Shown here piece by piece: positions 165 to 55,099 of a stretch of 64,000 nt of DNA. Made by a program: the position numbers and the translations under genes. The notes under the pieces are model-generated. The model was not told the origin of the DNA. It searched no databases and saw only the letters and a program-made list of their open reading frames with translations. Source of the DNA: Peribolospora baueri (taxonomy: Eukaryota); assembly GCA_029717555.1 (NCBI GenBank), contig JAMDHS010000012.1, positions 124,001 through 188,000 of the forward strand, written 5' to 3'. Numbering within the stretch: position 1 is the first letter of the stretch; each line of letters starts with the position of its first letter.

Positions 165-1598
165 TCAAGCGGCGACGGCGACGGGCTTGCTCTCCGTCAG
201 CGTCTCCATGCCCTCGCCTTTGCCGTTCAACACGTTGAGATCTACGAGCGCGCTGTCCACCTCCTCGCCCCTCTCCTTCCTCAAGGCCTTGACGGCGCGG
301 CACTCCTGCACAAAGTCGGAGAACATGCCGATCGTGTCCAGGGGTCCTCCCGCCGACTCGGGGTGGAACTGCACGCCCCAGATCTTCTTGCCCGAATCGT
401 TCGTGCTCTTCACACCCTCCACCGAAGCGTCATTGGCGTTGATGAAGAAGGGCTCCCAGCCGTCGGGGAACTTGTCCTCGAGCGTGAGGGCATACTGGTG
501 GTTCTGGCTCGTAATGTAGCATCGGCCCGCTTTAATCGAGGCAGCGTCGGCGAGGGCGAGCACGGGCTGGTTGTGGCCGCGATTGCCGAAGCGCATGCGG
601 TGTGTCTTGAGACCGGCGGCCATGCCGATAATCTGGTTGCCCATGCAGATGCCAAAGATGGGTCGCTCGCCCCATTCTGGCGAGTTCATCACCTTGCGCA
701 CATTGGACGCTGCCAGGCTGCAGTGCTGCGGGTCGCCAGGACCGTTGGAGAGAAAGAGACCGTCGAAGGAAGACATGATCGTCGACATGTCCGTGTCCCA
801 CGGCAGCACGGTCACAGACGCGCCGCGACGGACGAGCGAGCGGAGGATGTTGGCCTTGGTGCCGAAGTCGAGCACGGCGATCTTGACGTCGCCGGTGGGG
901 TTGAGCGTGTAGGCCTGCTTGGTGGACACCTTGGCCACCTGGTTGTCTTCCGTCGGGTCCCAGTACTCGCTCACGGGGTCGAGGTGCGAGGGTCCGACAG
1001 CGAGCTTACCGAGCGTGGTGCCTTGCTCGCGAAGGACGCTCGTGATGGCGCGCGTGTCGACGCCGGTGATGCCCGGGATGCCGTAGCGGTGGCACCACTC
1101 TGACAGGCTGTTTACGGCGGTGTAGTGGCTGTACCGGTCCGCGAGGTCAGCCACGATCACACCGGCGACCTGAACTTTACGCGACTCGAGGAGACATCCG
1201 ACGTCGATGCCGTCACCGAAGCCGTACGAGCCACTGGCGGAGGGCGAGGCATAGTTGTCCGGGACGCCGTAGTTGCCGATCATGGGTGTGGTGAAGACGA
1301 GGATCTGGCCGTCGTACGACGGGTCTGTCAGAGACTCAGTGTAGGAGGTGATCGAGGTGGAGAAGACGGTCTCTCCGAACGACGAACGAGGGGCGCCGAA
1401 CGCACGGCCGGTGAACTTCTCGCCCGACTTGAGATGCAGCGTTGCGGGTAGGTGAGGGTGCGAAGGCGGCTGGGTGGACGGGCGATAGCCGGACTCGACG
1501 GTAGCGAAGGCGCGAGAAGGGCCAACGGTCGCACGAGCGAAGACGGCCGAACGAAGGACGCCGACGTTCGCAGCGCTGGGACGGAGGAGGGCAATCAT
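165..1598 (-). CDS. CPA1: Arginine-specific carbamoyl-phosphate synthase small (glutaminase) subunit, mitochondrial precursor
   Basis: Uninterrupted 477-aa ORF. It has an N-terminal mitochondrial-type presequence, CPSase small-chain motifs (GETVFSTSITSYTESLTDPSYDGQILVFTTPMIGNYG, GVDTRAIT) and class I GATase motifs (SNGPGDP, FGICMGNQ, SQNHQYA, VQFHPE). Confidence 0.97.
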   Translation of the reverse strand: MIALLRPSAANVGVLRSAVFARATVGPSRAFATVESGYRPSTQPPSHPHLPATLHLKSGEKFTGRAFGAPRSSFGETVFSTSITSYTESLTDPSYDGQILVFTTPMIGNYGVPDNYASPSASGSYGFGDGIDVGCLLESRKVQVAGVIVADLADRYSHYTAVNSLSEWCHRYGIPGITGVDTRAITSVLREQGTTLGKLAVGPSHLDPVSEYWDPTEDNQVAKVSTKQAYTLNPTGDVKIAVLDFGTKANILRSLVRRGASVTVLPWDTDMSTIMSSFDGLFLSNGPGDPQHCSLAASNVRKVMNSPEWGERPIFGICMGNQIIGMAAGLKTHRMRFGNRGHNQPVLALADAASIKAGRCYITSQNHQYALTLEDKFPDGWEPFFINANDASVEGVKSTNDSGKKIWGVQFHPESAGGPLDTIGMFSDFVQECRAVKALRKERGEEVDSALVDLNVLNGKGEGMETLTESKPVAVAA

Positions 1599-1676
1599 TC
1601 TGCTTATTTGAGAGAGAGGGGTTGGAAGATAGTTGAAGAAAGAAGACGAAGAACTGGCGTTGCCTGTTTGTCAAGT

Positions 1677-5766: not shown

Positions 5767-6652
5767 CCCTTCCCTTCGCTTCACTTCTTTGCGTCTCTGC
5801 TTTGCGTTGTAGCAAGCGACCGCATCGCGCAGGCACGGCCGTTTTCGATCGACGCGCGCCCGTCTGTGTTTGTGTGTTTGTCTCAGTGCCGGCCAGGGGA
5901 GGGAGGGTTATTGGAGCGGCGCGACATGATATGATATGGCATGGCATGGCATGGCGAGGCGAGACGAGACGAGACGAGGCCAAGAGGGCGGATAAAAAAA
6001 TAAAAAGTAAAATTCAGGTTGGTAGTCAGGCACGGCGGTGATGGAGGACGGATGACGGATGAGGTGACGAAGGCGTGAGTGGGAGCGGTGCGCGCGTGGG
6101 CGGAGCGCGTCGCGACGCGGAGGCGGAAGGGAGGCGGGGCGAGGGAGGGAGGCAGTCCGTTTTCGTTTTCGTTTGTGGGAGGGACGGACGGACAGACGGA
6201 TAGAGGGGACGAGGGGCTGTCGCGGCGATGGCATGTATGTACGTGACGGCGACGAAGGCGACACAGGACGCGCATAGAGAGGACACGGATGGACATTCAC
6301 GTCGACCGACACGACACGCGCCCGCGCCATGTCGACGACGACGACGACGACGACGATGACGCCCAGCCCGCTCGCTCGTGCCACGGCCCCTGCGTTGAAG
6401 CCAGCGGGAGCGGGACCTGGTGCGGAGCGTCCGGTCGTCCGACGAACCGAGCCGTCCGGACGGTCGTGCGCATAGGTGGGCTGGCCGTCGTCGCTCACCG
6501 GCGCGCTCGCGGGGGCTCTTTGGTCGTATGCTGGACTGGAGGGATACGGAATGCGTGCATGCGGTGCGATCCTCGACTCCATTTCGGGCTCGGATTTTAT
6601 TTTGTTCTATTCGTCGTCGTCGGTCGTCTTCGTTCGTCGTCGTCGTCGACCT

Positions 6653-6695
<43 letters not shown>

Positions 6696-7503
6696 CTCGT
6701 CGTCTTCCTTCATGCCCGCTCGCAGGTTCCGGCTCGTCGGCTCGTCGGCTCGACGGCGCGTCTGTGTGTGTCGTCGAGGCGCGTCCCGGCCGGGCGGCGA
6801 GGAGGGGCAGGAACTAGCCAGCCAAAGCAGCCAGCCAGCGGGCAGGCCCAAAGTCAGGCCAGGCCAAGCCAGTCAGAACCGAAGCTGAGGGAAGCAGAGT
6901 CACGCGAGTCCAGACCGCGACCGAGACCGGGCGGGCCGGGCGGGGAGAGAAGAAAGAGGGAGGCGAGGCGGGCGGGGCATGGACGGACGGACGAGGAAGG
7001 CGAGGCGAGGAGGCGATGGTCGGATGATGACGACGGCGTTCAACGACGACGACAACGACAACGACAACGACACCCATCTATCCACCTTCCTCCTCTTTCT
7101 CTTCCTCTTGCCTCCCTTCCACCACCACCCCACCGCACCCACCAATTCCCCCACGCTCCTTTCTTCCTCCACACGCAGATTTCGCGTCGTAGATCATCCG
7201 TCCGCCCTAAGAGACTCACGATCAGGACTAGCGCCCGGTCCCCGTCCCATCACCCACTACACTACTCCCCCCCACCACATGATTCTCCCCGTTCCCCTTC
7301 CCTCTCTCTTTTTCTAAGACGCTCCCTCTTCGAGCGCCCCTCGGATACCCCACACCCACACCCTCTTTACAGCGCACAACACGCGTAGGCGACAAGACAA
7401 GCACGGGACGAGCGCGATACACCCTGCGCAACGCATACACGCATTCGCATTTGCATACACAAGCAGTCCAGCCCACGCCTGAGGCATAGAACAAAGAAAA
7501 AAA

Positions 7504-10566: not shown

Positions 10567-11926
10567 TCAAGCAAACACGTTCCTGTCCGCAAGCTCATCC
10601 TCAGGCAACCGAACAGCCTCCATCTTCCTCTTCCTCTCCTCTTCCGCCGCCTTGCGCTCGCCAAACTTGGTACCCTTGGCCAGGCGTTGTTGGTGTCGGA
10701 TGGCGTTGGGGGAGACGTATTCTGTAAGGGGTGTCCAGATCAAGTCAGTCACGCTTCCGGGGGCCGTAAAGAGAAAGAGAGAAAGAAAGAAAGAAAGAAG
10801 AAAAAAAGAAAAAGAAAAAGAAAAAGCAAAAAAGCTCACCAGAATTTTCAAACACGACAGCGCCATTGAAAGACCCTTCAAAGATCTTGATGGGCGTCAA
10901 GACGAGACGCGGCCCAATCTCTGTTAGCGTTGTCTTTGGCGTTGGCTTGTCCCTGCCTTTTTTCTTTCCCTTGCCCTTCTCCTTGGTCTTGCCCTCGCCG
11001 TCCTCGTCTTCGCCATCGACATCGGTAAAGCCGGCATGAGTATCTTTCTCAATGATTTGAAAGTTGCGGAACCATATCTTGTTGTCCACCCAGGAGAAAC
11101 TGAGGACGTGGTCGACGAACGGCTTGGATCGTCGAGCGCTTTTGGGCACGCCGAAGATCTGTGGACGGAGGTGGCGGTGGAGGAGAAGAAGAGCAAGTCA
11201 ATAAAAACCAAACAAGCACGACACGGGCCGGCCGGCAAAAATCAAAGAACCACGACATGGAAAGGGAGAGGGAGGACCAAAGCTCGCAGCGCCCTTTATC
11301 AGACCCGCTCATCCATCGACACTCACATGCGACAGGAGCTCCTTCATCAATCGCAGATGCGGCTGGCCATCAAACGTCTTGTCAAAACTCAACAACGGCC
11401 GACTGCCCTTGAGACAGTTGCCCGTCATCTTCAGCTCGTCCATGGTGTGAATGTTCTGAACGTGCATCTTGACGCTCGGTCCGTTTGGCGTTTTGGACAT
11501 CCACATGTAGAGGTCCTGGTGCCGGCGCGCCTCAAAGTAGAGCGTGTTGTTGCAGTTGTACAGCTCGGCCAGCTCGTTGAGCATCAGTAGGTTCGACTTG
11601 GAGTCCAGCTTGGAATCTGGCGCCGCGGGGCGAGGTAGACATGTCAGACGGCCAGCTCTCGTTTCGTTGACGTGACGACCGATGTCCGCATGCTCACCTT
11701 TCTTGGCGTGAGGCATCAGCGCCTCGAGATCGTTCATCAAGTGTCTCATACGAAAGGTGATCCCCCTCGAAGACAAGAGTAGCACCCTCTGCTTGTTCTT
11801 TTTTAACGGCGCCGTCCCGCCGCCCACCACCACATCCTCCAGATCCCCCTCCGCCTTGCGCTTCCCCTTCTCCTTTGCCTTGAGTTTGGCCTCGTTCTTC
11901 TTTTGAGCTGCGAGCACGGTGGCCAT
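10567..11926 (-). CDS. BRX1: Ribosome biogenesis protein Brx1 (Brix domain), multi-exon
   Basis: KQRVLLLSSRGITFRMRHLMNDL, LNELAELYNCNNTLYFEARRHQDLYMWMSKTPNGPS, HTMDELKMTGNCLKGSRP, KSARRSKPFVDHV and EIGPRLVLTPIKIFEGSF. Confidence 0.95.
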
Positions 11927-12228
11927 GACGGGTTGATATGAATGCTTCGTCGTCTCCCTCCGCCCATCCGTGTCGCATCGCGAAGACGACCCAAAAGCTG
12001 CGGCAAGTGCGGGGTTCCCACGGTCAGCGAGCGCACTGGCCGCGATCGCCCATCTTGACCTTGACCTGCCAGTCCCAAGTCGAAGGCGGCGGCCCACTCC
12101 CCACCCGAAGCTCCCCTAGGCATCGCACCGCTTCGCTCGCTCGAGCGGCCAATGCATCCTCTCCATCACCTCAATTTTTTGCAGGTGCTTCGCTCAACCC
12201 GAGTGCAGACGCGGCACTGATGCGTGCC

Positions 12229-15200
12229 ATGGCTTCGCCCAACGGCCGCCAGTCCTCGTCTCCCAACGGCGGCCCCCACCCTTACCGACTCGAAAACGAA
12301 GACGAAGCCGGGCCCACGAGCCGAGGGGAAGATGATCTGGTTGGAAAGAAGGTGGCCAGCGGGGCCGGCGATGGTGGTCTGAGCAATGATCTGGCAGACC
12401 CAGGAAGCGCGCGCGACGAGGATGAAGATGAGCAGTTCGTCTACCCCGGCGACGACGCGGCCGAAGTGGAAGAGGAAGAGGAGGCGTTCACCTACAAGAC
12501 GAGGGTGGATGAGGTCTTACCGGATGAGGAGGGGGAGGCCAGTAGCGAGGTTGCTCGTCGAATGGCTGCGGACGAGGACAGTGACGAGGAGGTTCGGTAC
12601 CGTCGTCAAGTCGGCGAAGAAGAACGGGACGACGAGTCCGTGTCTTCTCGCACCGTGGATGACAGGCCGGGCATGGGAGTAGTGAGTGTACGGCGGAACG
12701 TCTGCTTCACAACGGTCCTGTCTCTGATCACGACATTGGCTTCACTTGGCTCTTTACCCGCAGGCTCCCTCCTCCATCTCGTCAGCCAACGGAGGGCAGT
12801 CCAGACCGCAATCCTACATCTCCCTCGACGAATCGTCCGCCTTTGGTGGCGATACTTCTCAGTACTCTCCTCTGCCCCCCCTGCGCCCCGCCATGCACCC
12901 TTCCGTGTCTCGTCTGCGCTCTGCCTTTTCTCGCAATTCGTCGGCCGTGTCCGTGATATCCTCCAACCCCAGAAGCGCCTCGTTCAGCTCCTTTGCTTCG
13001 TTGCGCGGCCCCTCCGCACCGCAGAACATGCGCATGCCGTCCACGCCGTCGATGTCTTCCCTAAAGACTTCCGCATCTATTCTTCCGCTATTCCCATACG
13101 CCTCCTCGGACGAGAAAGGCAAATCCCCGGAAACACCCGCCAGCCCAATGACCCCAACGTCGACGTATGACGCGCAGCTCCGACGGGATCCATTCCAGTT
13201 CTCCCCGCTTCGGAGCTTGTCTGCTCAGATTTACCCGGTGTCCAAAGCCGCCAAGCTCACGGCGTTGAACGCTTATGGTACTCCCACCGTCATGGCAGTT
13301 AGTGGCGTTATTGCCGTCGGTACGAGCAGGGGCTGGGTGATGGTCTTCGAGTACAATCAAGACCTACGATGCATATGCGGCACAGATAGTCTAGGTGAGC
13401 CTTGCTTGAGTCTGGGTCGTGTCACCCCTTTCGTCCTCCAAGCGCTAAACTTTTACTTACTCTTATTCGCCAGCGAAAGAAAGCGGCGCTGTGACGGCGC
13501 TGGCCATCAGCCACGACCACACCTTTGTCGGTGTCGGTCACGAAAGGGGACACGTCCGCTTGTATGAGTTGCAGAAACCCAACGTCCCAGCTCGTTCCGT
13601 CGCGCCCGTCACCCGGGCCGAAGTGGCCTCTGGTCGACGCGAGGGTCATCTCGCAGGCTCCAAGATCTTGCACATTGCCTTTGTTGCCGCTCGTCACACC
13701 GCCATCGTTACCGCAGACGAATACGGCTTGAGTTTCTATCACGCGCTCGGCAAAGTCCTCATGGTCTCCGCCAACGACACCCTGCGCATCCTTGGACGCT
13801 ATCCGGATCCGCTTCCGTCACGACCTATCCCAGACGGCCATCGCAGGCCACCACGTAAACCTTCGACTATCTTTGCCATGGCACCCTTGCCGTTGGGGCT
13901 TGTTCCGCACATGGCCGAGCGGTATCAGTTCATCGCACTCCTGACGCCAGCCAAGCTCGTCATTGTAGGCCTCAAGCCCGCGCCTCGGACATGGTTTCGC
14001 CGCATGGCTCCCAGAGGCGTCCGAGGAGGCGGTATCGGCAAGGCGTCGGGCCTGCAAACGGAGACTGGTGCGGCGAACGGTGCTCCGGGCGAGATGGCTA
14101 GGGACGAGGCGATCGACGGCTTTCGCGAGGCTTTCTTACGGAGCGACTCATTAGACGCTGAACCTGCGGACGACGAGTTGGCAGGAACCCTCGCCTGGTA
14201 CCCGAGCCGCGAGCTCAAAGGAAACGACGCGTCGACTCTGACCTCGGACAAGACCTCGGAAGGCGCCACTTTTTCATCCCTTGGTCCTGTCCTCGCCTAT
14301 TCGTTCGGCCGTCGTATTTTCATCTTACACTTCGCTGTCGTCAAGGTGCAGAAGCGGCAGGCGGGCGCGACGCCCCCAAACGGTTCGGAAACCCCGCGGC
14401 GCTCTGAACCTGAGGCGCAACGGGTTGATATACGGGAAGGGCAATCGTTCCAAGAGGAGGACACAGTTGTGGCTATGCAGTGGTTGTCTCAACATGTGTG
14501 TCCACGTCCGCGTATGAGTCCAAACGCAGCGGCCGGTCCGAAGCTCACGATTGTTCTCTTGATACTATGCACAGCTGCTCCTCGTCATGACGCGCCAATC
14601 CCTCTCCCTTTACGACCTTCGCAAGGGCTCTCGCTCCGAGAAGCAAGGCCTGGATTTCTGGACACATGACGTACTTGCCCACGACTGGTATCGCAGGGCT
14701 CTGCGCGGCCGTGGTAGCGGAACAGACGAGGATGATCAAGCTCGAGTGGCCGAATCAAGGGCTCATAGTTTTCGTTGTTACAAGGGAAAGGTTTTCCTTC
14801 TGGTGAGTCGCTATAGCCGGTATTCTCGGGCACACATGTACCGTAAACTGACACACAATCAATAACCTCGTCTCGAAGACGCGGACAGGCGTCCTCGTCG
14901 GTACGCTGGTCTCGTGGGCGGATCGCATCCTGGCTTGCGTTCGAAAGGGCGATTTCTTGCAAGCCATCGACTTGGCGACATCCTTCTACACTGGCGAGGC
15001 AGACGGTTCAACCGTTGGCCTCCCGGACGATCGCGACAGAGTGCAGGCCATTGTGGGCGAGAAACTGCGAAGCCTCATGACTGCATCTGTCCAGTACGCG
15101 TTTGCGGAAGAGCGCATGACGGACGGCACGCACGACTCACCGGATGGCCGAGGCGTGGACCGAACGCCGCTGTTCGAGGGCCTAGTTGCAACGGTGGCTC

Positions 15201-17932
15201 GCGCTTGCCTGGCTCTCAACCACTGGGACTTTCTCTTTGAGGACCTTTATGAGCGATACCGGGAGAACGGCATCCAGGGTATCTTCGTTTCTCAGCTGGA
15301 ACCCTTCGTCATGAACGGCTTCGTTCGCCAAGTACCGCCCAACATCGTACAGCAGCTCATCCAGTATCACGCCACGCGAGAGCAGTACGACCGAGCGGAA
15401 ACTATCATCTGGCATGTGGACCCTCTTTGCCTCGACCTTGATCAGGCACTAAGTCTCTGCCAGACACACCGGCTCTACGATGCTCTCATTTACGTCTATA
15501 CTCGCGCCATACGCGACTTCGTGTCCCCTGTCGTCGAGCTCCTCGGGCTGATCCGGCAGGTTCAACGGAGTCGAAGACAACGTCCGCGACGAGTGGGCGA
15601 TGCCAATGGCGACGCCAGCATGGACACTTCCATCGAGGCGATGGAGGCGGCCGCGAGAAACGCGTACAAGCTGTTTCGCTACCTTTCCGATGTCCTCACT
15701 GGACTCGAGTACCCCAGCCAGGAACCATTGTCAGAGGAGGAAGCGCTTACGGCCAAGTCGACCATCTACTCGTTTTTCTTCTCCGGACACACAGTCCGTT
15801 GGCCACCAGGCGCCAGTGGGCGGGATGTTCCGGCGTCAGAGGAAGATGGGGAGCCCGAGTCCACTTACCCTTACCTTCGACTCGTGGTGCGCTTCGATGC
15901 CGAAGCGTTCCTGGACGCTCTGGACAGCGCCTTCGAGGACTCTTTCCTCAACGACGATGCCGCTAACAAGCATGTCAACCGGCAACTCATTGTCAATATC
16001 CTCCTCGACATCATGGACTCGTCAGGGTTCACGCCATCGGACATCACCTTTCTTCAAATTTTCGTCGCACGCAACCTGCCTAAATACCCCCAGTTCGTCC
16101 TTCTTAAACCTTCAATATTGCATCGTCTCCTCGTCGGTCTGACAGTCAGTCCGGACCAAAGCACACGGGACGATCGCCAGCTGGCGGTGGAATACCTGCT
16201 TTCCGTCTACACACCCCATGATGGGGACCGCATACTGGAGCTGTTCGAGAGGGCTGGCTTCTTCCGCATTCTTCGATCGGCATACCGATCTGAAAAGGCG
16301 TGGGGGAGCCTCCTCTCGACGTACCTGCGCGATCCGGACGTCGGCAACGACATTTTCATTCACGCCGCCGACGTCCTTGCGATGAGCTCTCGAGATAGCA
16401 AGCAGGTTGACCGAGAAGCTTCCCTGACCGTTATGGATGCGGTCCCGCAATTGATCGACGCCGGCGTTCGACAGACGGCCATCCTGGTCGATCGCTTCCT
16501 CCCCGAACTGCATGATGACGTCGTGAGCCGTCTCGCCGATTCCGAGCACAAGCAGTTCGCTTATCTGCGTTGCTTCTTGGAGCCGGAGGCGAGCTTGGAC
16601 GAGGCGGAGGAGCAGGCAGGGGATGAGCCGCTTCTGGGAAACTCTGGTCTGCAGCAAGCAGCCGATCATCTCAACACTGCCGCTCGCAGCCTCTACATCA
16701 CGCTGCTCAGCAGACATGACCCGCGCGGCGTTTTGCGTAACCTCGATGCGCAGCCACGAGACTTCTTCGACCTCGAGCATGTCGTCTCGACATGTCGAGA
16801 TGGAGAGGTGTTCGACGCCATGCTGTGGGCTATTGATCGGCAGGGGGAGCCGATGGCTGCTTTCGATGCTCTCGATGAGGTTGTCTCAAGTCTTACGCAA
16901 CTCCTCACGAAAGCGCTTTATAATGAGGAGGCTACGGCCGTCGCGGAAGCCCGAGCACGGCAGCAACGGCTTCTGGAGCAGCTACAGAGTGTGGCGAGCA
17001 TGGGCGCACGGCTATGCGTCGAGCACTCGAAGCTCGTTCCGCAGCCCTCTGATTTCCACAGCGGTGAACTTTGGTTCCGCCTACTCCACAGCCTCGTTCA
17101 CCTCGTGCAAGCTGTCGCTCAGACCTGCCAGCCGTTGGCCGGGCCCGATTGGGTGGTCATGAGCAATGAGGAGAAAGTTCGAGCACAGCAAGCGGCAGAG
17201 GTCCTCGAACAGTGCCGCGGCTTCATGCAACAGTCACTCTCTTCCCTAGTAAGCACCACTTCAACGTCTTCAATATCGTTTCCCCTACTCTTCAAGCGAC
17301 TCGTCGAGGCTGGCAGCTCGATCCACCAGGACGATTCGTACTCATTCTCCGACGACGCGCCGCGGGGTGGCTTCTACGCCGAGTTCCGATCGATTCTATC
17401 TGGGATGTTGGACACGTACCGTCACGAGGAGAACCTTTTGCGAATCACCAACCGCCTTTTCGATCGGGACCTCTTCAACCACGTCGAGGAGCTACACGTT
17501 CAGAGGCTGCGCGGTTGGAGGATGAAAGGCTCCAGGGGGGCGCCACCGGCGTGCGCAAAATGCGGAGAAGTGATTGGCGAACCGGTTTCTGGAGGACGAA
17601 AGGCCGCTCGGGGTTGGCAGAGATTGGAACCATTGACGCCGCGAACCCCACACACGCCTCGGACACCTCGGACACCCAACGGGCATCCGCCCGTCTCACC
17701 TGGCTTCGTCGACAAGGGCAAAGCTGTCGATCGCACCGGCACCTCGCAGACGTATTACGACGAGCAGGAGGGTTTCCGGTGGGATCGCCGACCGTCGCAT
17801 CACGAGGAAGAGGAAGAGGGAGAGGACGATCTGGAAGATCATGCGGTAGTCATACTCATGAATGGGGTTGTCTATCATCGTCGCTGCGTCCCAGCGGATC
17901 TGGCCATGCGGATAGATGAGCAGCGGCAGTGA
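12229..17932 (+). CDS. VPS8: CORVET complex subunit Vps8 (WD40 region, CHCR repeat, degenerate C-terminal RING), multi-exon
   Basis: PTVMAVSGVIAVGTSRGWVMVFEYNQ, ALAISHDHTFVGVGH, GHLAGSKILHIAFV, ALLTPAKLVIVGLKP, CLDLDQALSLCQTHRLYDALIYVY, YPYLRLVVRFDAEAFLDALDSAFEDSFLND and RQLAVEYLLSVY. The start is inferred from a good-context ATG (GCCATGG). Confidence 0.9.
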
Positions 17933-18292
17933 CGCCAGATCAGACAGCAGGACAGATCATCCCTATGCTTTCGACCGTCTACTGCCAGACGCCAGAAGAC
18001 GTTTTCCTTCCTCTTTCTCGCTCTTGCTTTCCTCGATCTTTCTGCTTCTCCTATTCGCTCAGAGCATCGCTTCACATACCCCTATCCCACGTATACTAGG
18101 TATTCCGAACCTCGCTCCACGCTTTGCTTGCGCCATGCGCGCGCGTTATTCGTATCCCGTATCTATCACTTCACTTCAGAGACCTCTCTCACTCTGACTA
18201 AAGTCTCTCGAGACTCGGGCGGAGTGAAGAAAGGGAGGGGAGGAGAGAGGAAGCCGGCCGGTGCATCGGATCGTGTCTTCGCGTGCCTAGCA

Positions 18293-18330
18293 CTATTAAC
18301 ATAACGACGTCCTATTAACATAACGACGTC
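18293..18330 (+). repeat. Perfect tandem duplication of a 19-bp terminal motif (CTATTAACATAACGACGTC x2)
   Basis: Units at 18293-18311 and 18312-18330. One inverted, slightly diverged copy lies at 20590-20608. Confidence 0.9.
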
Positions 18331-18990
18331 TGCAAAACTTGATTACGTAAAAATATATCTTGAGTTGTCGAATATTCGTCTTGCCTGTCCGAATGGTTTT
18401 CCTGCAACCCTTCAGACAATACATTGCTAATAAAGCATTTAGGTAATCTTGCCACCTAGACCATACCCTGTCAAAAAAAGAGAAGATCTCGAGACTGACC
18501 ATGCCATATCTCGCCTTCTGAATGGTGCAAAGTTCTGGTTAGCATACTCGTAAACCTTTCTAAGGTCGCCGTAATTCTGTTGACTTTGAGATGGTACTGT
18601 AACGACTTAAGAGGCTCAGTGTATTCCAATTTCCAAGGGGACAACCCGGGCGGACGGTGATGACCCCTCTGCCACGCCAGACCTAACCTACACGTCACTA
18701 GGGGCACATGAACCTGCACGTGACCCCCTGCGCGTGAGGGAGTGCCGCTACAGGTACATCTTGAAGAGAGACATTCGTACGTCTTGCGACGGATCCCCGT
18801 CAAGCAATGTGAATCTTGCTTGTCGCGGTCCTGTATAACTTTGCCGCGGTAAGGGTTAGGGTAGTCAGCCCGCTTCCGCTTGATCCGTGTTTTCTTTCTT
18901 GCTCGGGAGTCAGTCTCCTACGTCCATCCGCCAGCGACACTGGGGCGGCAGCCGTATCGGCCGCGTCTCACCGAAGAGCTTTCTTCGTGT

Positions 18991-19333
18991 CTACGTGTCA
19001 ACGATGGCGAAATCCGCAAGAATCCCGAAATTGACCATATCCGGCACTCCAATACCCTTCCCGTCGCCCTGAGGCGCACGGTACCCATCCTCTGGATCAA
19101 TCCACATGAAGCGAGAGGGCTGAGTAGGCGCGTCGATCGTGAGAAGCTTTTTGATCCACAAGAATCGCATCGGCCGCACCGCCGCTTGTGTGCTCCCCAG
19201 CTCGACTCTATCAAGTCGCCGAACCGCCAACTCCGACCGGGATGTTCTTCGGCTAGCTTCGCCAAAGGTTGCTTGGGTAAAGGGAGGAAGGCGCCCCTCG
19301 AAAATGGACGAGGCAGGCTTGAAGATCGCTTGG

Positions 19334-19366
<33 letters not shown>

Positions 19367-20328
19367 CGGAGAGGGCGTGGTTCGAGGAGCAAGCCGCCGC
19401 GGGGACGTTGCCGGAGGGGATCGACGTCGCGCTTTGGACGGCTTGCGTGGAGGCAGAGGAGAGGCATCGGAAGGAGATGAGGGCTTGGATACCGAGGGAC
19501 TGGAACAGCCGGCGACGGTGGGATGTTTTGCTCGTCGACGAACACGTCCCTGACGATATTCGAAAGATACATCATATCGTTCGACCTTATCCTCTTGGGT
19601 TCGTACTGGCGTGGTTGTAAAGGATTTGTAATTCAATGAGACCGAACAGGCACGTCGACAAAGTAGGGCAAATTACTCACAAATTCCATCACGGGAAACT
19701 TCGCTTGCCCTAGTCCGTGCAGGTCAGTCGCTCTCCCCATCGCCCACATACTTTAGGCGGTCGCTTTGAGCGCGCCGTTCTTCACGGCCAAGTCTGTTTC
19801 TGGGGCTGCCTCTCTCGCCTTTCGAGCCATCTCTACCTCGAAATAGTTGGAGAATCGTGTGCAGAGAGTGGGCGGTATCGCAAACGAGATGGTGTCCCAA
19901 AACACAAAAAGGAAAGTATCAACGGCGCAAGACATGGACCCACTACGAGGGCCTCCCTCATCCTTCCGCGCCCCCCACGGGAGCCCCAACTTGACCTTGG
20001 CCTTTTTGGAGCCTTTCACCCGCGTACGGGGTAGGTACCATGCCGCGCCCTCGACCTTGATCATAATCTCAACTGGGGCGAACGGCGCCTGGGGACCTTG
20101 GGAGTACAAGTCCTTGCCCTCATGCCGCCGCGGTTACATCGGCTCTGGAGGCTGGTTTCCCCTTGCCGTGCTTTTTGTTCGCGCCTTTCTTCGTTGGGGC
20201 CTTCCGACGAGGGGGGACAGCGACGAGTTCGATAGGTGTCTGCGAACCGGACACGTACTCCTCGTGTTCCACTTGTAATGCCCCTCGATGTTCGCGTCCG
20301 AGAAGCGGTATTGAAGAGCCCCAGTCAT
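18991..20328 (-). pseudogene. Decayed spliced gene inside the TIR element (about 420 codons, two in-frame TAA stops, one intron)
   Basis: ORFs 20328-20134 and 20109-19753 share one frame, which continues to a GTGAGT donor at 19680. An intron 19680-19606 (ending CAG) joins it in phase 0 to the frame of ORF 19575-18991. It contains LGLPWG...SMSCAVDTFLFVFW. Confidence 0.5.
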
Positions 20329-20421
20329 GACAGGATGGATGGTCTAGTGGGCAAGATTACCTAAAAGCTTTATCAATGCATTGTCTGCAGGGTTGCAGGA
20401 AAACCATTCGGACAGTCAAGA

Positions 20422-20582
20422 CGAATGTTCGACACCTTGAGATTAATGTTTGGGTAAGCAAGATGAATGTTCGGCAAATGGATGTTTGACACCTTAAGAT
20501 TAATGTTTAAGCAAGCAAAATGAATGTTCGACAACTCCAAATTGATGTTTAGGTAAGCAAGGTTAATGTCTGGGTAAGAATG
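20422..20582. repeat. Degenerate approximately 21-bp minisatellite within the right TIR
   Basis: Recurring (G/T)(A/G)ATGTTY units spaced about 21 bp apart. The minus-strand translation shows a 7-residue period (NINL/NIHL). Only about 1-2 such units are present in the left TIR. Confidence 0.7.
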
Positions 20583-21539
20583 TTTCACAGACATCGTTTT
20601 GTTAATAGTAGGGCATGCCTACACGCCGATCAGAAAGGAAAGGTGTCGGGGAACCTCCCGGCGGGGTCTTCCTGATTTGATTTGGCATCGGGGACAGACG
20701 CTCTCGAAGATATTCTTGTGGAACGCTCACGAGCGAACGCTCTGCGAGGGGACGGGATCGCGCTTCTTCAAGTCGAGTCGGAGAGGAGAGGATGGAACGT
20801 GGGGTCGGGGCCACAAGAGACGGAAGGAGGTGTCGTCGGGCACATGGCGCCACCACGCATGTTCACTTTCGCTTCGCTTCGCTTTCGTGGCTGTGGCCAT
20901 GACCGCATGAGGGGGAAAGGAGAAAAAAAGGACCATCATACTGGAAAAAAAGGGCTCCCGTAGATAAACAAACGTAAAACGAACGGAAACGCGGGACGCG
21001 AAAAAAGGTACATCGACACGACAACGTATCAACACAGCGTTAGTACACATCAACCTATCGTCGGGGATAGGCGTTACAGAGCGGAGCGGTCGGCCGATCC
21101 GTCGTTGACAAACAAGATAAAAGGGAAAAAGGGGGGAAAGGAAAAAAGAAAAGAGAAGGGTATGGGGCGGGAGACAAGGGGGCGAGTCATAGTTCTTGGG
21201 TATGGGGTATATGCGGTCGGCGTCGGCGCGGTGGCGAGGGGAGGGCGCGCAACTGTTCCGATTCAGGGTTGTTGAGAAGAGACGGGAGAAAGGCGCACGA
21301 ACGGACGGGGAAGTATGGATGGAGGGCCGAGGCAAGGTAAGCCAAGCCAAGTTAAGTTGAGCGGAGTCGGGAGCCACCGAGAGACGACGAGAGGGAACGG
21401 TCTGACGAGCGAGGGCCGTTCGAACCGAGCGAGACTGGCCTACCACGCCGGGGGTCTCTGCTTATCGGGGTTATCGCATTCCGCAAGCGGCGGTGTGACG
21501 ACGTGAGCGGGTTGGTCGCCGAGTCACACGTCTTCGCGC

Positions 21540-22866
21540 TCAGTACTTGGGGCGGCGGCCCCAAGGGCGGTAGGAGTCTGCGTGGATGGAAGGAGAGACA
21601 GAAGAAGGAAAGAAGAGGAAGACGAAGGCGAGAGAGGAGAAGGATGAGCACGCGGACGATATCAAAGGGAAGAAAGGACACGACCGGACGACGGTTGGAT
21701 GCACTCACAACCGCTGTAATAATCGCCGCGTTTCTTGCTTCTCGTGTGGCCAAAGCACACGGTGACTGAGGCGAGAAGGAGAGCGACGAGCGCCGCTAGG
21801 ACCATCCAGATGGCCGGACCCAGCGTGGCGGTGGCATCGGTGACGTCGTCGTTGATCTTGTGGCCTGTATGGAGAGGTTGGCGGGAAGTGTTAGAGGAAA
21901 AAAAACGAGGATCGACGCCTCCTCCCCCACGGGGAGGCCAGAGAAGGCGAATAAGCAGGGGCACACTCACGAAGGGTAACGAAGCATCCCAAGTCCAACG
22001 CGAGCGCGAGCGCGGTGACGAGGGCGGCAAGGAAAGAGAGTAAGGCGGCGATGAGGTCGAGGACAACCGAGTTGCTCAGGGCAAAAAGCCAGGCAACAAA
22101 GGTGAAGGCCGCTGCGATGGGGTTGATGACGAGTGACTTGGCGAGTGCCTCGGAGATGACTGCGCCCACTTGACCTTCGCCTGGGAAGATGCGACTACCA
22201 GAGGCTGGAGGCCAGGGGAGGAGATGCGAGCGGGAGATAAAAACAAGGCAAGGCGGAGGGTTGAATTTGGTGAAGTAATTAGGAGAGGGGTTAGGAGAGG
22301 GGTTGGAAGCTCACTCAAGCCATATCCGAGCTGCTTTGGGGTGCAAGACCAGGCGTCCGAACCCGATGCTTGGGAGCAGATGGACCAGATTCCCCACTGA
22401 GCGGCGCAGCAGTGGCCATGGAACAGCGAGAGAGGAGGGAGGGAAAGGTCAGCAGGGCGCGATCCGACGATGCGTCGCTGTCTCTGTCGCTCCACGGGGA
22501 GTCAGCCGCTTCGCGTCGCATCGCATCGCGTCGCTCCCGTCGCTCACCCTGACTTGAACGTTGGAACTGGAGCTGAAACCGTTGGTGCCGAGGACGGCCT
22601 TGAGGTAGTATATGGAGTGGATATAGGGCTCAGAGATGGAGACCTGCGGGAGGAAGCGGAGGCGAGTGAGCGCGGGTAAGAAAGAGGGGTTCGGGGCTCG
22701 TCTCATCTCTCCCGTCCCTCGTTCGTCCAGGCAGAGCCAGTTGTGGCATCCGCCATCGTGGGCGATACAATGGAGAAGAGGAAGAGGAGGAAGGCGCACG
22801 CACGAGGATGAGGAGAACGAGCGCCGCGGTGAGAAAGAAAACGCCGGGGACGAAGAGGGACCTCAT
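21540..22866 (-). CDS. SUR7/PalI (Rim9-like) four-TM membrane protein, multi-exon
   Basis: MRSLFVPGVFFLTAALVLLILV|SISEPYIHSIYYL, the claudin-like WGIWSIC...C motif, LVINPIAAAFTFVAWLFA and LGPAIWMVLAALVALLLA. The inferred last exon reads YSYRPWGRRPKY*. Confidence 0.85.
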
Positions 22867-30291: not shown

Positions 30292-30678
30292 GGTGGGACA
30301 ATGTAACCCTGTCTAAACTCTTCATCTGCATGCGCCGTCGGACTCTGTAAGCTCGGAGGTGAAGAAGCCCGAACTGCCGGACGATCCAGGTGGGCGGCCG
30401 CAAAGGTGGAGACCTGATGGCCTTCTTTCAGTCTTTGTCTGAACTTCCTGTGCGATAATAGATTCTCGTCTTCCTCCGTCTTGGTTTTCTTTCGGTGCAC
30501 ATCGACCCGCTTCCGATTTGTCAGATGTCAGTTACCCTTAGGACACTTGCCTAAAATTACGTTCATATTCGTTTCGCTGCCTTTCCATGCTTCCGAAACG
30601 GTTCATTCCTTGGTGGATGAAAAAAAGACATTTGAAACGAACTAAGGTCATGGACGAAGTACTTGGCGGGACACGGCA

Positions 30679-33600
30679 TCAGTCATACTCCATCATCATC
30701 GTCCGTCTCCTCTCTTCCATTTCCTCCTCCGTCATCTCATACCCATCATATTCATCTGCCATCATCGTCTGGCTCGCCCCTTCCTCCTTCCCGTCCGCCA
30801 CTCCATCTCCATCTCCGCCATCTTCTCCCAGCTCCCACACGCCTTTCTTCCCCTCCCGCTTCTTGTCCACGGACTTTGACATATTTCGAGGTGGAGGAGG
30901 CCTGATATTAGAGTGCAAGCTGGGGACGCGGAGGTTGCGGGACAGGCCTGGCCTGCGCACGTTGGTGGGGCTGCCGTATTTGGTGGTGAGGAGGGTACCT
31001 AGAGTGCGTTTCCGCGTAGCGAGATTGGCGAGTCTGCTGGTTGGGGTGGTGGGGTCGGTTGTGGACGGGCAGACAGCGGTCTTCATTGAAGGTTTGACGG
31101 GAGAAAGGGAAGAAGGGCAGGTCGAGAGGGGAACGCTTTCCTACAGGTGCATATGCGTACGGTGAACGAAGAAGTGTGAGATAAACTTCCAAAATGATCT
31201 ACGCCTCAAACATACCTTGTCCAGTTCAACTTCATGTTCCAACTCGTTTCGCTTCTTCTGAGACCTTGAAGGCTGAACGTGAACGTTCCGGTTGTCACTC
31301 TTGTCATGGAGATCTTGCTCAACCCCATCCACCTCACTTTCGCCATCCACCTCTTCGCTGCCCTTGCCTGCGCCATCGGCCTTAGCCTGATCATGAGAAA
31401 CCTCTTCAGTGGGCTCTGACACCTCTTGGTCCGATCTTTGGGTGCTCTCCCGCGTTGTGGACCGACGCATCTTCGTGGCCGCCAGTCCTTTCTTGACCCT
31501 GGTCTTGGGCTTGCGTTTCGCGGGTGAAGGGTTTCCCTCCTCTTCCGCTCCACCTTCCTCCGCACCATGGACAGAGGGTCCGCCTTCAGCTTCCTCATAT
31601 AAGTGACTCCTCTTAACCTTCCTTGTGGACTTCTCCACCGGTACAGAGGCGGGAGACGAGTGCGACCGCTTGGCCAATTGGCTTCTTCGTGGCACTTCCA
31701 CTGATATCGGCGCCCACGGCCCAGAGGTTGGGGAATAGTGGTACGTCTTGGTGATATCGTCCTTATTGTTATGTGCAGACCTTGAGGTGGTCGCTTTTTC
31801 CTCCTCGACGGGAGGGCCTCGCTGGGCCAATCCGCCATCACGTTCGCCACCATCGTTGCCCCCGTTATCTACGAGCCAGAACTCGTCATCGTCAAAATGA
31901 CTCGAGCGTGCCACCTCCTCGGAGGACCTGGCCATTTTTGTCCCGTCGAAGTGTACTTTGCTTATTGAAGACGAACTCCTAGCGATGCTGGCCAGCGGTA
32001 GTCTTTTGCCCAACTCTCCATCGACATCCCCGTCCGTCTTTGGCGAGCTGGATCTCACCGATGCTATGATGCGAGGTCCAGAAGGTGGAGATGGAGGGGA
32101 GAGGGACTCACCATCATCCGAGATAACAATCGGTACGTTCTTTGCCTTTTTCTTGGACTTCCCGGGGCAGTCTGCCTGTCGTGTTGACCGCATAGGTGAC
32201 GCGAGTGACCGAGCATTTCGACCTTCTTCCACGTCTTCTTCCTCGACTTTACCCTTCTTGCCGTCTCTCCTCTGCTCCTTCGACGCCCTCCTTCTCGATT
32301 TTGCTGCCTTGCCCTTCCTCTTGGCGGAGCCTGATGCACTTTTGCGCCTTGATCGAGAAGCCACAAAATCCTCATCTTCAGGGTCCGACCACGGCGCCGG
32401 GACCGGTGTCGGGGCCGGAGACGACGAGCGGTGATCACAAGCGTTGCCAGTTGTCTTCCGACGTGATAAATGCTCGTCTGCGATGGCGAAAGGATGCGAA
32501 CCGGTACGACGTCGTTTGGAAGGCGGGAAAGGCGACGTTTTGCAAGAGTCTGAGAGTTCACCAGCGCGTTCCCGAAGTCCCTCGTCAAGTTGGCTGCCGA
32601 GCCGGACGATCGGTCGGTTTCCACTCGCATTCAAGCCGCTTCCTTCAGCTTCCACGTCTTCCATGCTTTCTTCCTTGTTTGGCCATCCGGTGTCATCTCT
32701 TTGAGAAGAAGTCACAGCGCTGTCGGTTGAAGCGGGGTAGGAGGACAATTTAAGATCGGGTTTGAGACGCGAGCCAGACGAAGAAATATGGGATTCCGAC
32801 GCGCACATTTCTGCACTTGTATCGCCATGTTCGGCCGGAGTGAGTGGAGTGGTTCGTTGACCGGCGGTGCTGCAAACGGTGGCGGGTTCAGTTGGTGTGC
32901 CGGTTGCTGCGACGGTGGGAACAAGCGACTGAGTGGTGGTTGTGAGAAAGAAATCTAACAAGAATTATGAAAGCATTCGAACGTAATTTGTGTTCAGCAG
33001 TAGAAGAGAAGGGTAGGAGTTGGCCGCCGGATGAGCATGAAAGTGCTCGTAGAAACCGTCAATCAGCGCATATACTCACCGTCCCCGGCTTGCTCCAACT
33101 CGGCCGCGCCTTCGTCCTCGCTGTCGAGGATGACCGCGTCTGACCGAACGGGTTTCTTGCTTTGCCTTCTTTCTTCTCTGCGCCCCTCGGACTTCTCCGT
33201 CGGACATTCAGCCGAATGCCCCATTGCCGGCGCTTGACCACCAATGCCCGCGAGCTGAGCCACCTTCATCGCCTCGGACAAGTCAAAGCTCGAAAGGCTG
33301 CTCTTATCCGACACGTGTAACCTACTACCTTCACTGTCATTGTCTCTCGCCGAGCCGACCTCCATCTGTCCTTCTACTCCTTTCAGCGAAGTTCGAGCCT
33401 CGTCCGGGCTTTCGCTCGATTCGGCGGCGAGATGAGAGTGCCCGATGGCGTGTGCGATCACGTCGTCGTCAGAGCGGGAAGATGGACGTATGAAGCTGAA
33501 AGAATAGTGAAGGGCGTTCGGCGGAGGGTCACTGCCATTTATACCGCGAGAAGAGGAAGGGTGCGTTTGCCTTTGTTCAAGTGGATTGTCCCGAGCGGGA

Positions 33601-34511: not shown

Positions 34512-37472
<2,961 letters not shown>

Positions 37473-44897: not shown

Positions 44898-46335
44898 CTA
44901 GCGCCTCCTCTCCCACTCGTCCACGGCCAAACACCACCCCAAATGCGCCGCGCACGCTTCCACCTGCGTCTCCAGCTGTCGTCGGCTGGCGGGCCGAGGC
45001 AGGGTGTCGGACAAGAGGAGGTGAAGGTGGGCCGAGATGCGGAAGTGAGGGCCGGAACCGATGCCGTTGGCGTTGCAATCGGTGCGAGATGGGGTGGGGA
45101 CGGAGGTGGAAAAGGTGGTGGAGATGGGTGTTGGAGGAGGGCTGGGTGGCAGCCAGGTCGGCGGAGGGGGTCCCGCCTGCGGCCTTGGCGAACCGACGAC
45201 GCGACCTCGGTCGGTGCCCATGAGCAAGAACCATTGGACGAGCGCGTCTAGATCTGCGTTCGTCCTGGCGATGTGCGTCTCCACGGCTTGCGAGTTCGAA
45301 GCGGATTCTTTTCGAGGAGCGGAAGGACGGGTCAGCGTCGTCGTTGAACATGGCGACAAACGCCTTTCGTCGTCGTTGTCGTCGTCGTCATCGTCGTCGT
45401 CGTCGTCGTCGTCAGGGCTATCAGGCGCTCCGACAAGCCTAGCAAGCCGTCGCCGAGCCGGGACGAGGATGACCATAAAAGCGTGCAAAAAGGTTTCTAT
45501 GCTGAGCCGAGGGATTTCCTGGCCAGATCGGGGTGCGGCTGCGCCCGGGCGGCGGCGGCCAATGATGGCACCCGGAGCTGGAGCCGGCCCCGGCGGAGTG
45601 GATGGAATGGGCGGGTTGACGATTGTATCTGTACCCATTCGCAGCACCCGGTCGTGATCGTCCACGGCGAGATGGGCAGGCTTGTCCGTTGTCTCCTCGT
45701 CGACGAGCGTCATCATCGACAACGACTCCATGAGGGCGCCGTCGTCGTCGAACCCCTCTTTGTCGTTCTCTCCGCTCTTGCCAGCGGCGCCCGACTGCTG
45801 CTCAGCTGCCAAGTTGTTGCTCCCCACGAGCCGGGCGAGTCGCACGTATTCGAGCCCGTCGATGACCAAGCCGGCCCTTGTCTCGTCCATCGGAGCATGA
45901 CGAGAGGCGTCGACGTCATCGGGCAGGCAAGTGGAAAGAGGAGAAGGAACAGGGTTGGAAAGGGAGACGAGTTGGATGAGTACGTCGACGAGCTCCGAGG
46001 CTGCCTCGCCTGGGTTGGAGGAGACATCGACGGGGTGAGAGAGTAGACGGAGGCGAGCGGAGGTGACGGCGGCGAGGGCGGAGGAACGGCCGGCGTTGTC
46101 GGGCTCGGTGTCGGTGTCGACGGCGGGATCGTCTTCGGCGGCGCGACAGGCGTCGATGAGGAGTCGTCGGACGAGTCGGTTCGTGTCTACGACATGCTTG
46201 CTCGCCTCAGAGGGGCGGCGGCGGGCGTAGGTGGAGGAGAGGAAGGAGCGGGAGGCAAACAAAAGGGTGCGGATGGAGCGGAGGTGAGGCAAAAGGACTT
46301 TGTCGAGGGCGCCGCCGGCAGACGACGTCGGTGTG

Positions 46336-52738: not shown

Positions 52739-55099
52739 CTAATCATCCACCACCAACGGGATGACGACAAACGCGCTTTGCTCCTCATCCTCAGCCCCGT
52801 CGTCGCCGGAGCACAAGGGCTGCACCAAAGCCCGACAGTCGTCACACATAGGACAAGGTGTCTCTGCCAAACCGCTCCTCCGCGCTACTACAGGGGCAGG
52901 AGCGGGAGGTTGCAACAATCTTGGTCGACTCGCAGCAGCGTCATCGTCGTCGTCGCTGCCGGGAGATCCCGGCCGGTCTACTACCGCCGTTTGTCGAGGC
53001 CGGCTGGAATCGAAAAGACTCGAACCCTTCGCCCCGACCTCCGCCACCGTACCCGCACCTGACCCGGAGCCAGCCCGTTCGTTCTCCTCTGCGCCTCTGG
53101 CAAAAGGTCTCAAAACGGACCGACCTGGTCCAAAGGGCCTTTCGACGACCAGGAAGCGAGCCACGGCGCGTTCGCAGATCCTGCAGCGCCGAAGAACGGG
53201 AAAATCGATGGGGTCAATGGGGATGGAGGCGAGAAGTCGTCGTCGTCGTCGACGGCGTTGAAGGCGGTCGGCTTCTTGATCCCGTATAGACTCGTCGCCT
53301 GGAGCAGAATCGGCGTCGGCCGGCGTAGGCGAAGGAAGACGAGCAGAAGTCAAGTCTTTGAAGAGCGACTGTGCGGCAGGGGACGAGCGGAGGTCGCGGG
53401 GCTGGGAGAAGTGGTGCCAGCGAGGATAGGAGGACGGCTCTGCTTGGGAGGGTGAGGGGTGCATCCTAGGGCGGCGGTGCAGAGGAAGAAGGAATGAAAT
53501 GACGAAAGAGAAAAGTGAGACGTCTCAGCACGGGCATGCGAGTCGGTGTGCCAGTCAAAAAGCGGTGCCGAGAGAGGAGGTACACTCACCTCACGTCCTC
53601 AAAGCACCAAACATGCTCGCAATCGCCCTGATGCAGGTACCAGTAGGGCTCGCCGACGCGGACGGTGAGCGAAGATAGAGGAACGTGTCGCATGGGCCGT
53701 CCCTTGGTGGGCGGCCGCTCATCTCTTTTCCTCTTCTTCCTCGTGCGGTCCGAGCCGGTTGATGACAAGGCGGAGTCGTCGTTCGAGGTCATGGAAGAAG
53801 CATAATTTGCGATGAGGCTGGGGAGCGGAGGAGAGCGAAGACAAATAACCTCGTGAGAGGGGAGACGGACGTGAAATAAGACGCGGCATGGAGGCGAGCG
53901 AATCGCAAGGCCCAATATGCAATATTCACCTGGCGTAGTTCCCACCGTCGTCCCTTGCTCGGTCCCCATAGAGCACGCCTTCGATGCACATGACCGAATC
54001 CGTCTCGCGTCGCTTGCTCTCAAACATGGCTGACGACGACGTCTTGGCCCCTCCCTCAGCACCTTCGCCTTCGCCTTCGCCTTCGCCCTCTCGCGCCCTT
54101 GCAGGCATGAAATCGCTCGCACAAACAATGGCCTCCATCAAGTCCATCAGTGTGTTCGTCGAAAGAAGCTCGAACGTGTGGGTATGCGCGAGGGATGTCG
54201 GCCCTGGCTCTTCCAACTGTGCATTGCGCAGGCCCACATGAGAGGGATTGTATGCCCCTTGGTTGAAGGACAAAGGTGCTTGGGAGCGTGCTCGGTAAAG
54301 GGAATAGACGGAGATGGTGAGCAGCAGCGGTTGTGCGTGCGGGCCCGACGGCGCAGATATAGGTCGGGACGCTTCCATCATAGATGTTCCAGGGTTGGGT
54401 GGATCCGACTGTGGAGGGAAGAAAAAGGAGAGAAGCGTTCAGTCGTGTCCATCAGCCAAGGTCAGGCCCGTACTGTTGGGAGAAGCTCACATGTGGAGGA
54501 AGGACAGAGGCGTTGGTTTGATGGGCGTAGAGAGACATCTCTGGCGTGATCTTGAGCATCCTCAACCCGCTGCTTTCCATCTCCTCCATGACCCTAGGCC
54601 CGGCGCCGTCGCCGTCTCCGTCGTCGGCAGTCTCCGCTCGCTCTTCTCCGCAAGGCGCGGTTCGAGTGCCCTCCGAGTCAGCCCCTCTCGAGCCTTCCTT
54701 CTCCTTCCAGTCCGTCCTTCCCTTTCTGTTTACCTTTCCCTCGCCCTGCACCTTTCCCTTTCCCTTTGCCTTCTCCTTCGCCTTACCATCCTCCACCAAA
54801 CCATCCCACCTCTCCCTCACCCTCCTCATAACGCCCTCATCCCTCGCCAGCTCACCAACGCACGCAGCCACCGTCTCGGCGGCGGCAGCGCACCTCTCTC
54901 GCAGCGCGGCCCGATCGTCGGGCGCAAGCTCGTCGAGGCCGGCGATGGCGGAGCGGGGAGAGGGGAGAGCAGAGAGAGAGGAGGAGAAGAAGGCGAGGTC
55001 GATGGGCGAGGAGGAGGGTCCGAAGAGGTCCGGCGCGTATGGGAGCGGTCCCCCTCCCCATACTCCTCGTCCCCTTGAAGCCGACGACGTGAGCTCCAT
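52739..55099 (-). CDS. snRNA-activating protein complex subunit 3 (SNAP50/SNAPC3)-like zinc-finger protein, multi-exon
   Basis: FELLSTNTLMDLMEAIVC, SVMCIEGVLYGD, LSSLTVRVGEPYWYLHQGDCEHVWCFEDVR and C-terminal CRIC...PCPMCDDC match the SNAP50 C-terminal zinc-finger domain. The start could extend to 55367. Confidence 0.8.

Follow-up and report, generated by a model that had tools for sequence, protein, structure and literature searches.

A decayed element with long composite inverted repeats, possibly of Mutator/Foldback lineage, between the convergent VPS8 and PalI-like genes of Peribolospora baueri

The locus

The DNA considered here is a stretch of 64,000 nucleotides from Peribolospora baueri (assembly GCA_029717555.1, contig JAMDHS010000012.1, positions 124,001 to 188,000 of the forward strand), hereafter the window, and the subject is an element of about 2.3 kb within it (18281-20621; 2,323 nt without the flanking 9-mers) that is bounded by long inverted arms and for which all coordinates agree with the sequence. 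The element occupies the spacer between the 3' ends of two convergent genes, VPS8 on the plus strand and a SUR7/PalI-family gene on the minus strand, and starts 358 nt past the VPS8 stop (Table 1). It was first pointed out in an earlier note that was made from the letters of this DNA; the feature is confirmed as real and correctly observed, and its siting between the two convergent 3' ends is borne out by the Pfam matches and the strands of both genes. In base composition the arms are the two lowest-GC (guanine plus cytosine) islands of the window, reaching a minimum of 0.36 versus 0.594 overall.

Table 1. Features of the element and genes of the window (positions are those of the window; TRF, Tandem Repeats Finder)
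Feature	Position	Strand	Remarks
Left flanking 9-mer, putative target-site duplication	18281-18289		GCGTGCCTA
Left arm	18290-18473	+	184 nt, GC 0.39
Terminal motif with tandem second copy	18292-18330	+	TRF period 19, 2.0 copies, 100% matches; D2 of the repeat finder
Inner conserved core, left arm	18363-18473	+	Pairs with the reverse complement of 20328-20437
Unique interior	18474-20327		1,854 nt, GC 0.57, near the window's 0.594
Codon-like periodic block	18865-19632		About 770 bp; open frames on both strands
Open frame, 251 aa	18865-19620	+	Within the periodic block
Open frame, 213 aa	18991-19632	-	Within the periodic block
Triplet tract (CGA/GAC)n	19338-19366		TRF period 3, 9.7 copies; inside the periodic block
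Open frame, 126 aa	19753-20133	-	Host-like codon usage
Right arm	20328-20612	-	285 nt, GC 0.39
Array of 21-bp units	20417-20590	-	AACATY... on the minus strand; candidate transposase-binding sites
Terminal 20-mer, right end	20590-20609	-	18/20 identical to the left copy (90%)
Right flanking 9-mer	20613-20621		GCATGCCTA
VPS8, several frames (introns)	12728-17932	+	Frame stop at 17932; Pfam TPR_Vps8, 2.6e-75, plus beta-propeller and C-terminal repeats
SUR7/PalI-family gene	21891-22310	-	Pfam match 7.3e-08
CPSase small chain with GATase	165-1670	-	Window gene
Brix-domain protein	11312-12115	-	Window gene
ATP sulfurylase with APS kinase	35811-37288	+	Window gene
ERO1 C-terminus	49967-50680	+	Pfam match below cut-off
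SNAPC3	53589-54137	-	Window gene

Structure of the inverted arms

In a blastn comparison of the region with the 64-kb window the arms paired inversely, 18338-18473 with 20462-20328, at 84% identity over 138 columns (E 2.3e-36), and a repeat finder gave the same pairing as its repeats I1 (93 nt, 85%) and I4 (35 nt, 91%). A gapped alignment of the inner core showed 99 identical bases among 108 aligned (91.7%), plus 5 gap columns. The lengths of about 184 bp and 285 bp reported in the earlier note proved exact, while its description of the arms as inverted copies holds for the terminal 20 nt and the inner core and not for the extra ~100 nt of the right arm, which is an array of 21-bp units. Collinearity as inverted copies thus extends only over the outermost 20 nt and an inner part of ~110-138 nt; between these two parts the arms differ in the number of repeats.

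The terminal 20-mer, ACTATTAACAWAACGAYGTC, is found at 18292-18311 (+), once more at 18311-18330 (+, 1 mismatch), and at 20590-20609 (-), the pattern being absent from the rest of the 64 kb and from 100 shuffles (0 matches). Only at the left end does the motif form a perfect 19-bp tandem duplication (18293-18311 and 18312-18330), and because the arms are otherwise about 9% diverged, this duplication must be younger than the insertion of the element.

The 21-bp units are best seen in the right arm, where TRF recorded periods of 57 (20425-20534) and 42 (20476-20560) and where the hexamer RATGTT recurs at 20424, 20445, 20466, 20481, 20502, 20523, 20544, and 20579 with a spacing of mostly 21 nt; these sites are 8 of the 21 plus-strand occurrences of the hexamer in the window. 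One copy of a 17-nt sub-motif, GTCGAAYATTCRTCTTG, lies in the left arm and three copies lie in the right one, and the window as a whole has 6 matches to it versus 0.41 expected. The left arm holds just about two degenerate copies of the 21-bp unit, so it is the expanded array of these units that makes the right arm longer. Each end of the element thus begins with the 20-bp terminal motif, which is followed by 21-bp units in varying number and, further inwards, by the conserved core of about 110 bp.

Further short islands of low GC (0.39-0.43) are located at 10701-10950, 30426-30700, and 60676-60850; they have no sequence in common with the arms by blastn.

The flanking direct repeat and the assignment of the element

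Outside the two arms stand the 9-mers GCGTGCCTA and GCATGCCTA, which match at 8 of 9 positions and differ by a single G versus A at a CpG. Chance agreement was assessed with 20,000 random flank pairs of the window that had the same spacing and were allowed a slack of at most 5 nt at each end, and the 8/9 match was equalled by 0.44% of these pairs. The corresponding fractions for other lengths were 1.5% (8-mer, 7/8), 1.5% (10-mer, 8/10), and 4.0% (11-mer, 8/11); among lengths of 6 to 11 chance was least likely at nine, and for this reason nine is the best-supported length of the duplication. When the element and one 9-mer are removed and 18276-18289 is joined with 20622-20630, the reconstructed empty site is GCGTG-CCTA-CACGC, which forms a short palindrome with the insertion point at its centre.

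The 9-bp duplication, taken together with the long unequal terminal inverted repeats (TIRs) built of tandem units, makes a Mutator/Foldback (Tm1/Phantom-like) origin the leading assignment. With moderate confidence, the locus is read as what is left of a non-autonomous class II TIR transposon with Foldback-like composite TIRs that inserted once, long ago, the Mutator/Foldback lineage being favoured. Three features expected of a class II TIR transposon are present, namely inverted termini, a target-site duplication (TSD) just outside the ends, and an interior with no functional transposase. Long inverted repeats that are composed of tandem sub-repeats and are unequal in length, as in Foldback elements, are present as well. 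In the classic Foldback elements the arms make up most of the element and there is little or no unique middle; this feature is absent here, where the arms total 469 nt of the 2,323 and the remainder is unique interior. The earlier note had proposed a non-autonomous long-TIR element, and this part of the proposal is upheld by the inverted arms, the tandem arrays, the flanking repeat, and the lack of a transposase.

The Mutator/Foldback assignment is based on the length of one imperfect duplication; it is plausible, and several observations weigh against it. The duplication is imperfect, with 7/8 agreement if it is taken as an 8-mer and a perfect core of only 6 bp (TGCCTA), and its length rests on one instance. 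Part of the 9-mer, GCATGC, is self-reverse-complementary, and the flanks may alternatively be a weak, ragged extension of the inverted repeat; nor do the 9-mers directly adjoin the matching part of the arms, from which they are separated by the unmatched bases GC at the left and AGG at the right. A CACTA sequence lies at 18291-18295 on the left and TAGTA at 20606-20610 on the right, one transition off perfect CACTA-type termini, and the CACTA of the left end would suggest another superfamily. No domain of Mutator-like elements (MULEs) was detected in the element (36 open reading frames, ORFs) or in 98 long ORFs of the window, and a single copy is visible, with no second copy or fragment in the 64-kb window, so that family membership and mobility are unproven. 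The 9-bp TSD and the Mutator-like identity that the earlier note had put forward are hence retained in part: nine is the best-fitting length and the copies agree at 8/9, but one imperfect repeat is the sole basis for both and a length of 8 bp fits nearly as well.

The last of these points leads to another reading, a possible though rather unlikely one, in which the locus is a non-autonomous TIR relic of a different superfamily, chiefly of a type with 8-bp duplications (KDZ, that is Zisupton/Dileera, or hAT), and less likely CACTA/EnSpm. Agreement of the ninth base by accident would be expected in about one case of four, and KDZ elements are common in Basidiomycota. In the cited part of one study the Cryptococcus element KDZ1 is described with TIRs of 236 bp and 8-bp TSDs (PMC11343200), and another study, as far as its cited section goes, ascribes 8-bp TSDs to Zisupton and Dileera and notes that the ends of KDZ and CMCT elements are often 5'-CA..TG-3' (PMC12730594). 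These likenesses are set against the better support of nine bases over eight in the null described above and against the Pfam scans, in which no KDZ, hAT, or EnSpm domain was recorded among the same two sets of ORFs. For hAT elements it also counts that their TIRs are usually short. For CACTA/EnSpm, besides the near-CACTA termini, the arms themselves are of some relevance, as En/Spm elements characteristically have subterminal repeat arrays of unequal length at their two ends; nevertheless the adjoining 3-bp flanks, TAG and GGG, match at one base of three, and under this reading the 9-mers would match by mere coincidence.

The flanking repeat also speaks against an origin without a DNA transposon, such as a local inverted duplication caused by an error of repair or replication, an inverted repeat that surrounds an orphan gene and serves the host in a structural or regulatory role, or else a non-autonomous DIRS-like retroelement. 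The single copy within the window and the missing transposase agree with such an origin, and DIRS elements do have inverted terminal repeats of unequal length; they make no duplication, however, and the 8/9 direct repeat lies right outside both arms. The arms are moreover AT-rich and composed of tandem units, unlike the surrounding DNA, and their divergence of about 9% would make it unlikely that the two still recombine or undergo gene conversion with each other. An internal region complementary to the termini, which is required in a DIRS element, was not found by blastn (word size 7, E<=10), and neither a reverse transcriptase nor a recombinase domain was detected by Pfam in the 36 interior ORFs. 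Taken together, this group of explanations is considered very improbable.

Age and decay

The paired parts of the element are preserved to a similar degree, the inner core at 91.7%, the terminal motif at 90%, and the flanking repeat at 89% identity, that is, with about 8-11% divergence in each. The equal divergence of core, terminal motif, and 9-mers suggests one old insertion, at which the parts would have been identical and after which they would have drifted, in agreement with the old age that had been proposed for the element. The present copy is most likely immobile.

Decay driven by methylation or resembling repeat-induced point mutation was considered as the main process of divergence and was rejected: the window has an observed/expected CpG ratio above 1 and hence no CpG depletion, and of the 12 substitutions that distinguish the paired parts just 2 are CpG transitions.

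Transposase and further copies

The earlier note had reported no recognisable transposase in the element, and this was confirmed with Pfam, by which none of the 36 interior ORFs reached the cut-off. The window as a whole has 103 ORFs with a length of at least 170 aa, of which 98 were scanned, the 5 skipped ones being shadow frames inside VPS8; no transposase domain, including MULE (PF10551/PF00872), KDZ, hAT, and EnSpm, was found in these 98. The arm motifs gave 0 matches in a prokaryotic genome collection, which is as expected and uninformative.

Under the favoured reading as an old Mutator/Foldback insertion, mobilisation would have taken place in trans: a transposase encoded elsewhere in the genome may have bound the terminal motif and the 21-bp units of both arms, excised the element, and integrated it where the 3' ends of VPS8 and the PalI-like gene face each other, at a cut with a stagger of about 9 bp. 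The flanking 9-mers would have arisen when this cut was repaired, and since the insertion the arms would have drifted to the extent given above, as would the terminal motif and the duplication.

The remaining part of the window contains ordinary housekeeping genes (Table 1), among which no transposon-related domain was recorded by Pfam.

The interior of the element

The interior has no known protein or RNA family match. Pfam was applied to 36 of the 43 listed ORFs, 10 of them larger and 26 smaller, with a minimum length of about 40 aa; the other 7 lie mostly or wholly outside the element, with four of them reaching a few bases into an arm. Matches at chance level (E 0.031-0.3) for six of the ORFs were all that was obtained. 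No Rfam match at E<=1 was found in the interior, and ARAGORN gave no tRNA in the window. Neither an interior copy of the termini nor another copy of the interior in the window was detected by blastn (word size 7, E<=10).

The most gene-like part is the periodic block, in which GC by codon phase is 0.64/0.64/0.48 (chi-square p 4.8e-05), a GC1/GC2/GC3 pattern that is VPS8-like. Its sense-versus-antisense codon score is -1.4 bits over 251 codons, whereas 12 genes of the window, scored in the same way with leave-one-out, reach +16 to +38 bits for every 100 codons. The block looks like present or former coding sequence, on one or the other strand. The 126-aa frame scored +28 bits over its 126 codons, and an overlapping plus-strand frame scored +33, so that the strand is not settled by the score. 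By eye, the interior looks like two convergent blocks, a plus-strand frame ending at 19620 and a minus-strand frame ending at 19753, with an AT-richer spacer between them, and the minus-strand frame of this pair has no start codon of its own.

Two observations on the interior may be added. The triplet tract resembles tracts at 6333-6704, 45363-45413, and 53236-53258, which are the only blastn matches outside the element and are of low complexity, not copies of the element. A possible 49-nt intron, also noticed by eye, lies at 20084-20132 on the minus strand (GTAACC...CCCCAG) and would join two minus-strand frames into a longer one; no start codon is found in the frame upstream of it either, as might be expected of a gene that is fragmentary or in decay.

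Relatives of the three main interior frames were searched for at the protein level. The 213-aa frame gave one match among 1,835,955,588 representatives, to a protein of 2,108 aa with E 1.2e-18. This match was rejected as a repeat-inflated false positive, since about 17 near-identical repeats of that protein each weakly match the same ~40 residues. This protein, with its repeats of ~110 residues, also shows that phmmer scores can be inflated by the summing of weak repeat matches. The 251-aa frame had no match among proteins of 138-440 aa or of 441-2000 aa and no usable match in a protein atlas, while the 126-aa frame had no relative among proteins of 69-221 aa and, in the atlas, just unnamed clusters at 0.91 with a recognition of 1665 versus a useful level of 2300. 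In the PDB sequence search the three frames yielded 0, 0, and 1 matches, the one match being that of the 126-aa frame with E 0.85. Single-sequence AlphaFold2 models of interior frames had a mean predicted local distance difference test score of 31.8 and 38.4 and were uninformative. Finally, tblastn of 9 interior ORFs versus the window produced nothing outside the element below E 0.015, meaning that no parental copy is present in the window.

These results bear on the proposal of the earlier note that the element carries cargo, that is, that it is Pack-MULE-like and has an interior made up of host gene fragments that it has captured. Such a reading is suggested by the GC and CpG content of the interior, which are near those of the host and unlike those of the arms, by the codon-like periodicity, and by the appearance of two convergent open frames, of which the minus one has no start codon, in keeping with capture of a fragment. 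Gene capture by a transposon is also documented in fungi, for a hAT element, in the cited part of a published study (PMC6710886). On the other side, no homologue was obtained for the 251-, 213-, and 126-aa frames in the protein searches described above, apart from the spurious match, the Pfam, PDB, and atlas searches were empty, there is no paralogue in the window, and on neither strand does the periodic block show the codon usage of the host; in addition the MULE assignment is itself unproven. The proposal was accordingly not sustained, and a Pack-MULE-like nature of the element is regarded as improbable. The more specific version, a Foldback-type Mutator element with two convergent captured coding fragments of host or foreign origin that would be a fungal counterpart of the plant Pack-MULEs, is given hardly more than slight credence. 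In this version one of the fragments would still show codon periodicity; no relative of the captured sequence could be detected in the libraries of proteins that were searched, of which the largest has about 1.8 billion cluster representatives.

Comparison with known systems

The closest counterpart found is the Mutator/Foldback family Tm1, which occurs in root-knot nematodes and belongs to the Phantom clade, and it is compared here within the limits of the cited part of its description (PMC3169594). Tm1 is characterized there by composite unequal TIRs of tandem repeats, 9-bp TSDs, and short non-inverted terminal motifs, and by non-autonomous members that exist beside one copy with a MULE-type transposase. 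The present element shares with Tm1 the inequality of the arms through a differing number of short tandem repeats, the conserved inner TIR segment, the putative 9-bp duplication, the few non-inverted bases at the extreme ends, and the lack of a transposase, which is the case for most Tm1 members; sizes of ~1-2.6 kb and an average identity of ~93% between the two TIRs of an element are also similar (PMC3169594). It differs in the unit, which is 21 bp here and 13-15 bp in Tm1, the two having been compared by description and not by sequence; in the number of copies, since Tm1 has many, one of them with the MULE-type transposase, versus one visible copy here; and in the host, which is an animal for Tm1 and a fungus in the present case (PMC3169594). 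MULEs are ubiquitous in fungi according to the cited section of a survey, in which compact genomes of the basidiomycete-yeast kind are reported to hold just a handful of transposons (PMC5751038), and in a review they are listed among the DNA transposons of Cryptococcus (PMC7175516). The likeness to Tm1 and the ubiquity of MULEs in fungi are further grounds for keeping Mutator/Foldback as the leading assignment.

A Pack-MULE is defined by interior fragments that are demonstrably homologous to host genes elsewhere. No such homology was found here for the three interior frames or within the window, and this separates the element from the plant Pack-MULEs. Plant Pack-MULEs are mentioned in two studies (PMC10799480, PMC6710886). 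What the element has in common with them is the long TIRs, a putative duplication of about 9 bp, the absence of a transposase, and an interior composition that is not transposon-like.

Among basidiomycete yeasts the Cryptococcus element T1 is described, in the cited portion of its report, as a 2.7-kb intergenic element with TIRs and without a DDE ORF (PMC9942834). It resembles the present element in having a basidiomycete-yeast host, a position between genes, a presumed non-autonomous nature (no DDE/DDD ORF), and an ORF of unknown function; on the other hand, its TIRs are 11 bp long versus arms of 184 and 285 nt here, it is multi-copy (five full copies) and demonstrably mobile, and in the cited study it was not inserted between convergent genes, unlike the present element (PMC9942834). 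Another Cryptococcus element, T3, has TIRs and a MULE transposase domain according to the cited part of its report (PMC11343200). The statement of the earlier note that this class is little described in basidiomycete yeasts is therefore overstated, T1 and T3 both being known (PMC9942834, PMC11343200). With KDZ1 and other KDZ elements, as far as the cited sections describe them, there is likeness in the basidiomycete host, in the long TIRs, and in a duplication that is one base shorter, but they measure ~6-11 kb and carry a KDZ transposase, whereas the present element has 2.3 kb, no transposase, and a best-fitting duplication of 9 bp (PMC11343200, PMC12730594). No description of a Foldback-type MULE transposon in Basidiomycota was found in the literature searched, the coverage of which did not extend to subscription journals and Repbase reports, and this is weak evidence of absence.

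Significance

In summary, the element itself is fairly ordinary and, as it stands, is a single decayed copy that matters mainly for correct repeat annotation, where the open frames inside it are not to be called genes without further evidence. If the family assignment is true, a Foldback-style long-TIR non-autonomous element would be added to the short list of DNA transposons of basidiomycete yeasts, and the old insertion between two convergent genes would be a possible phylogenetic marker among strains.

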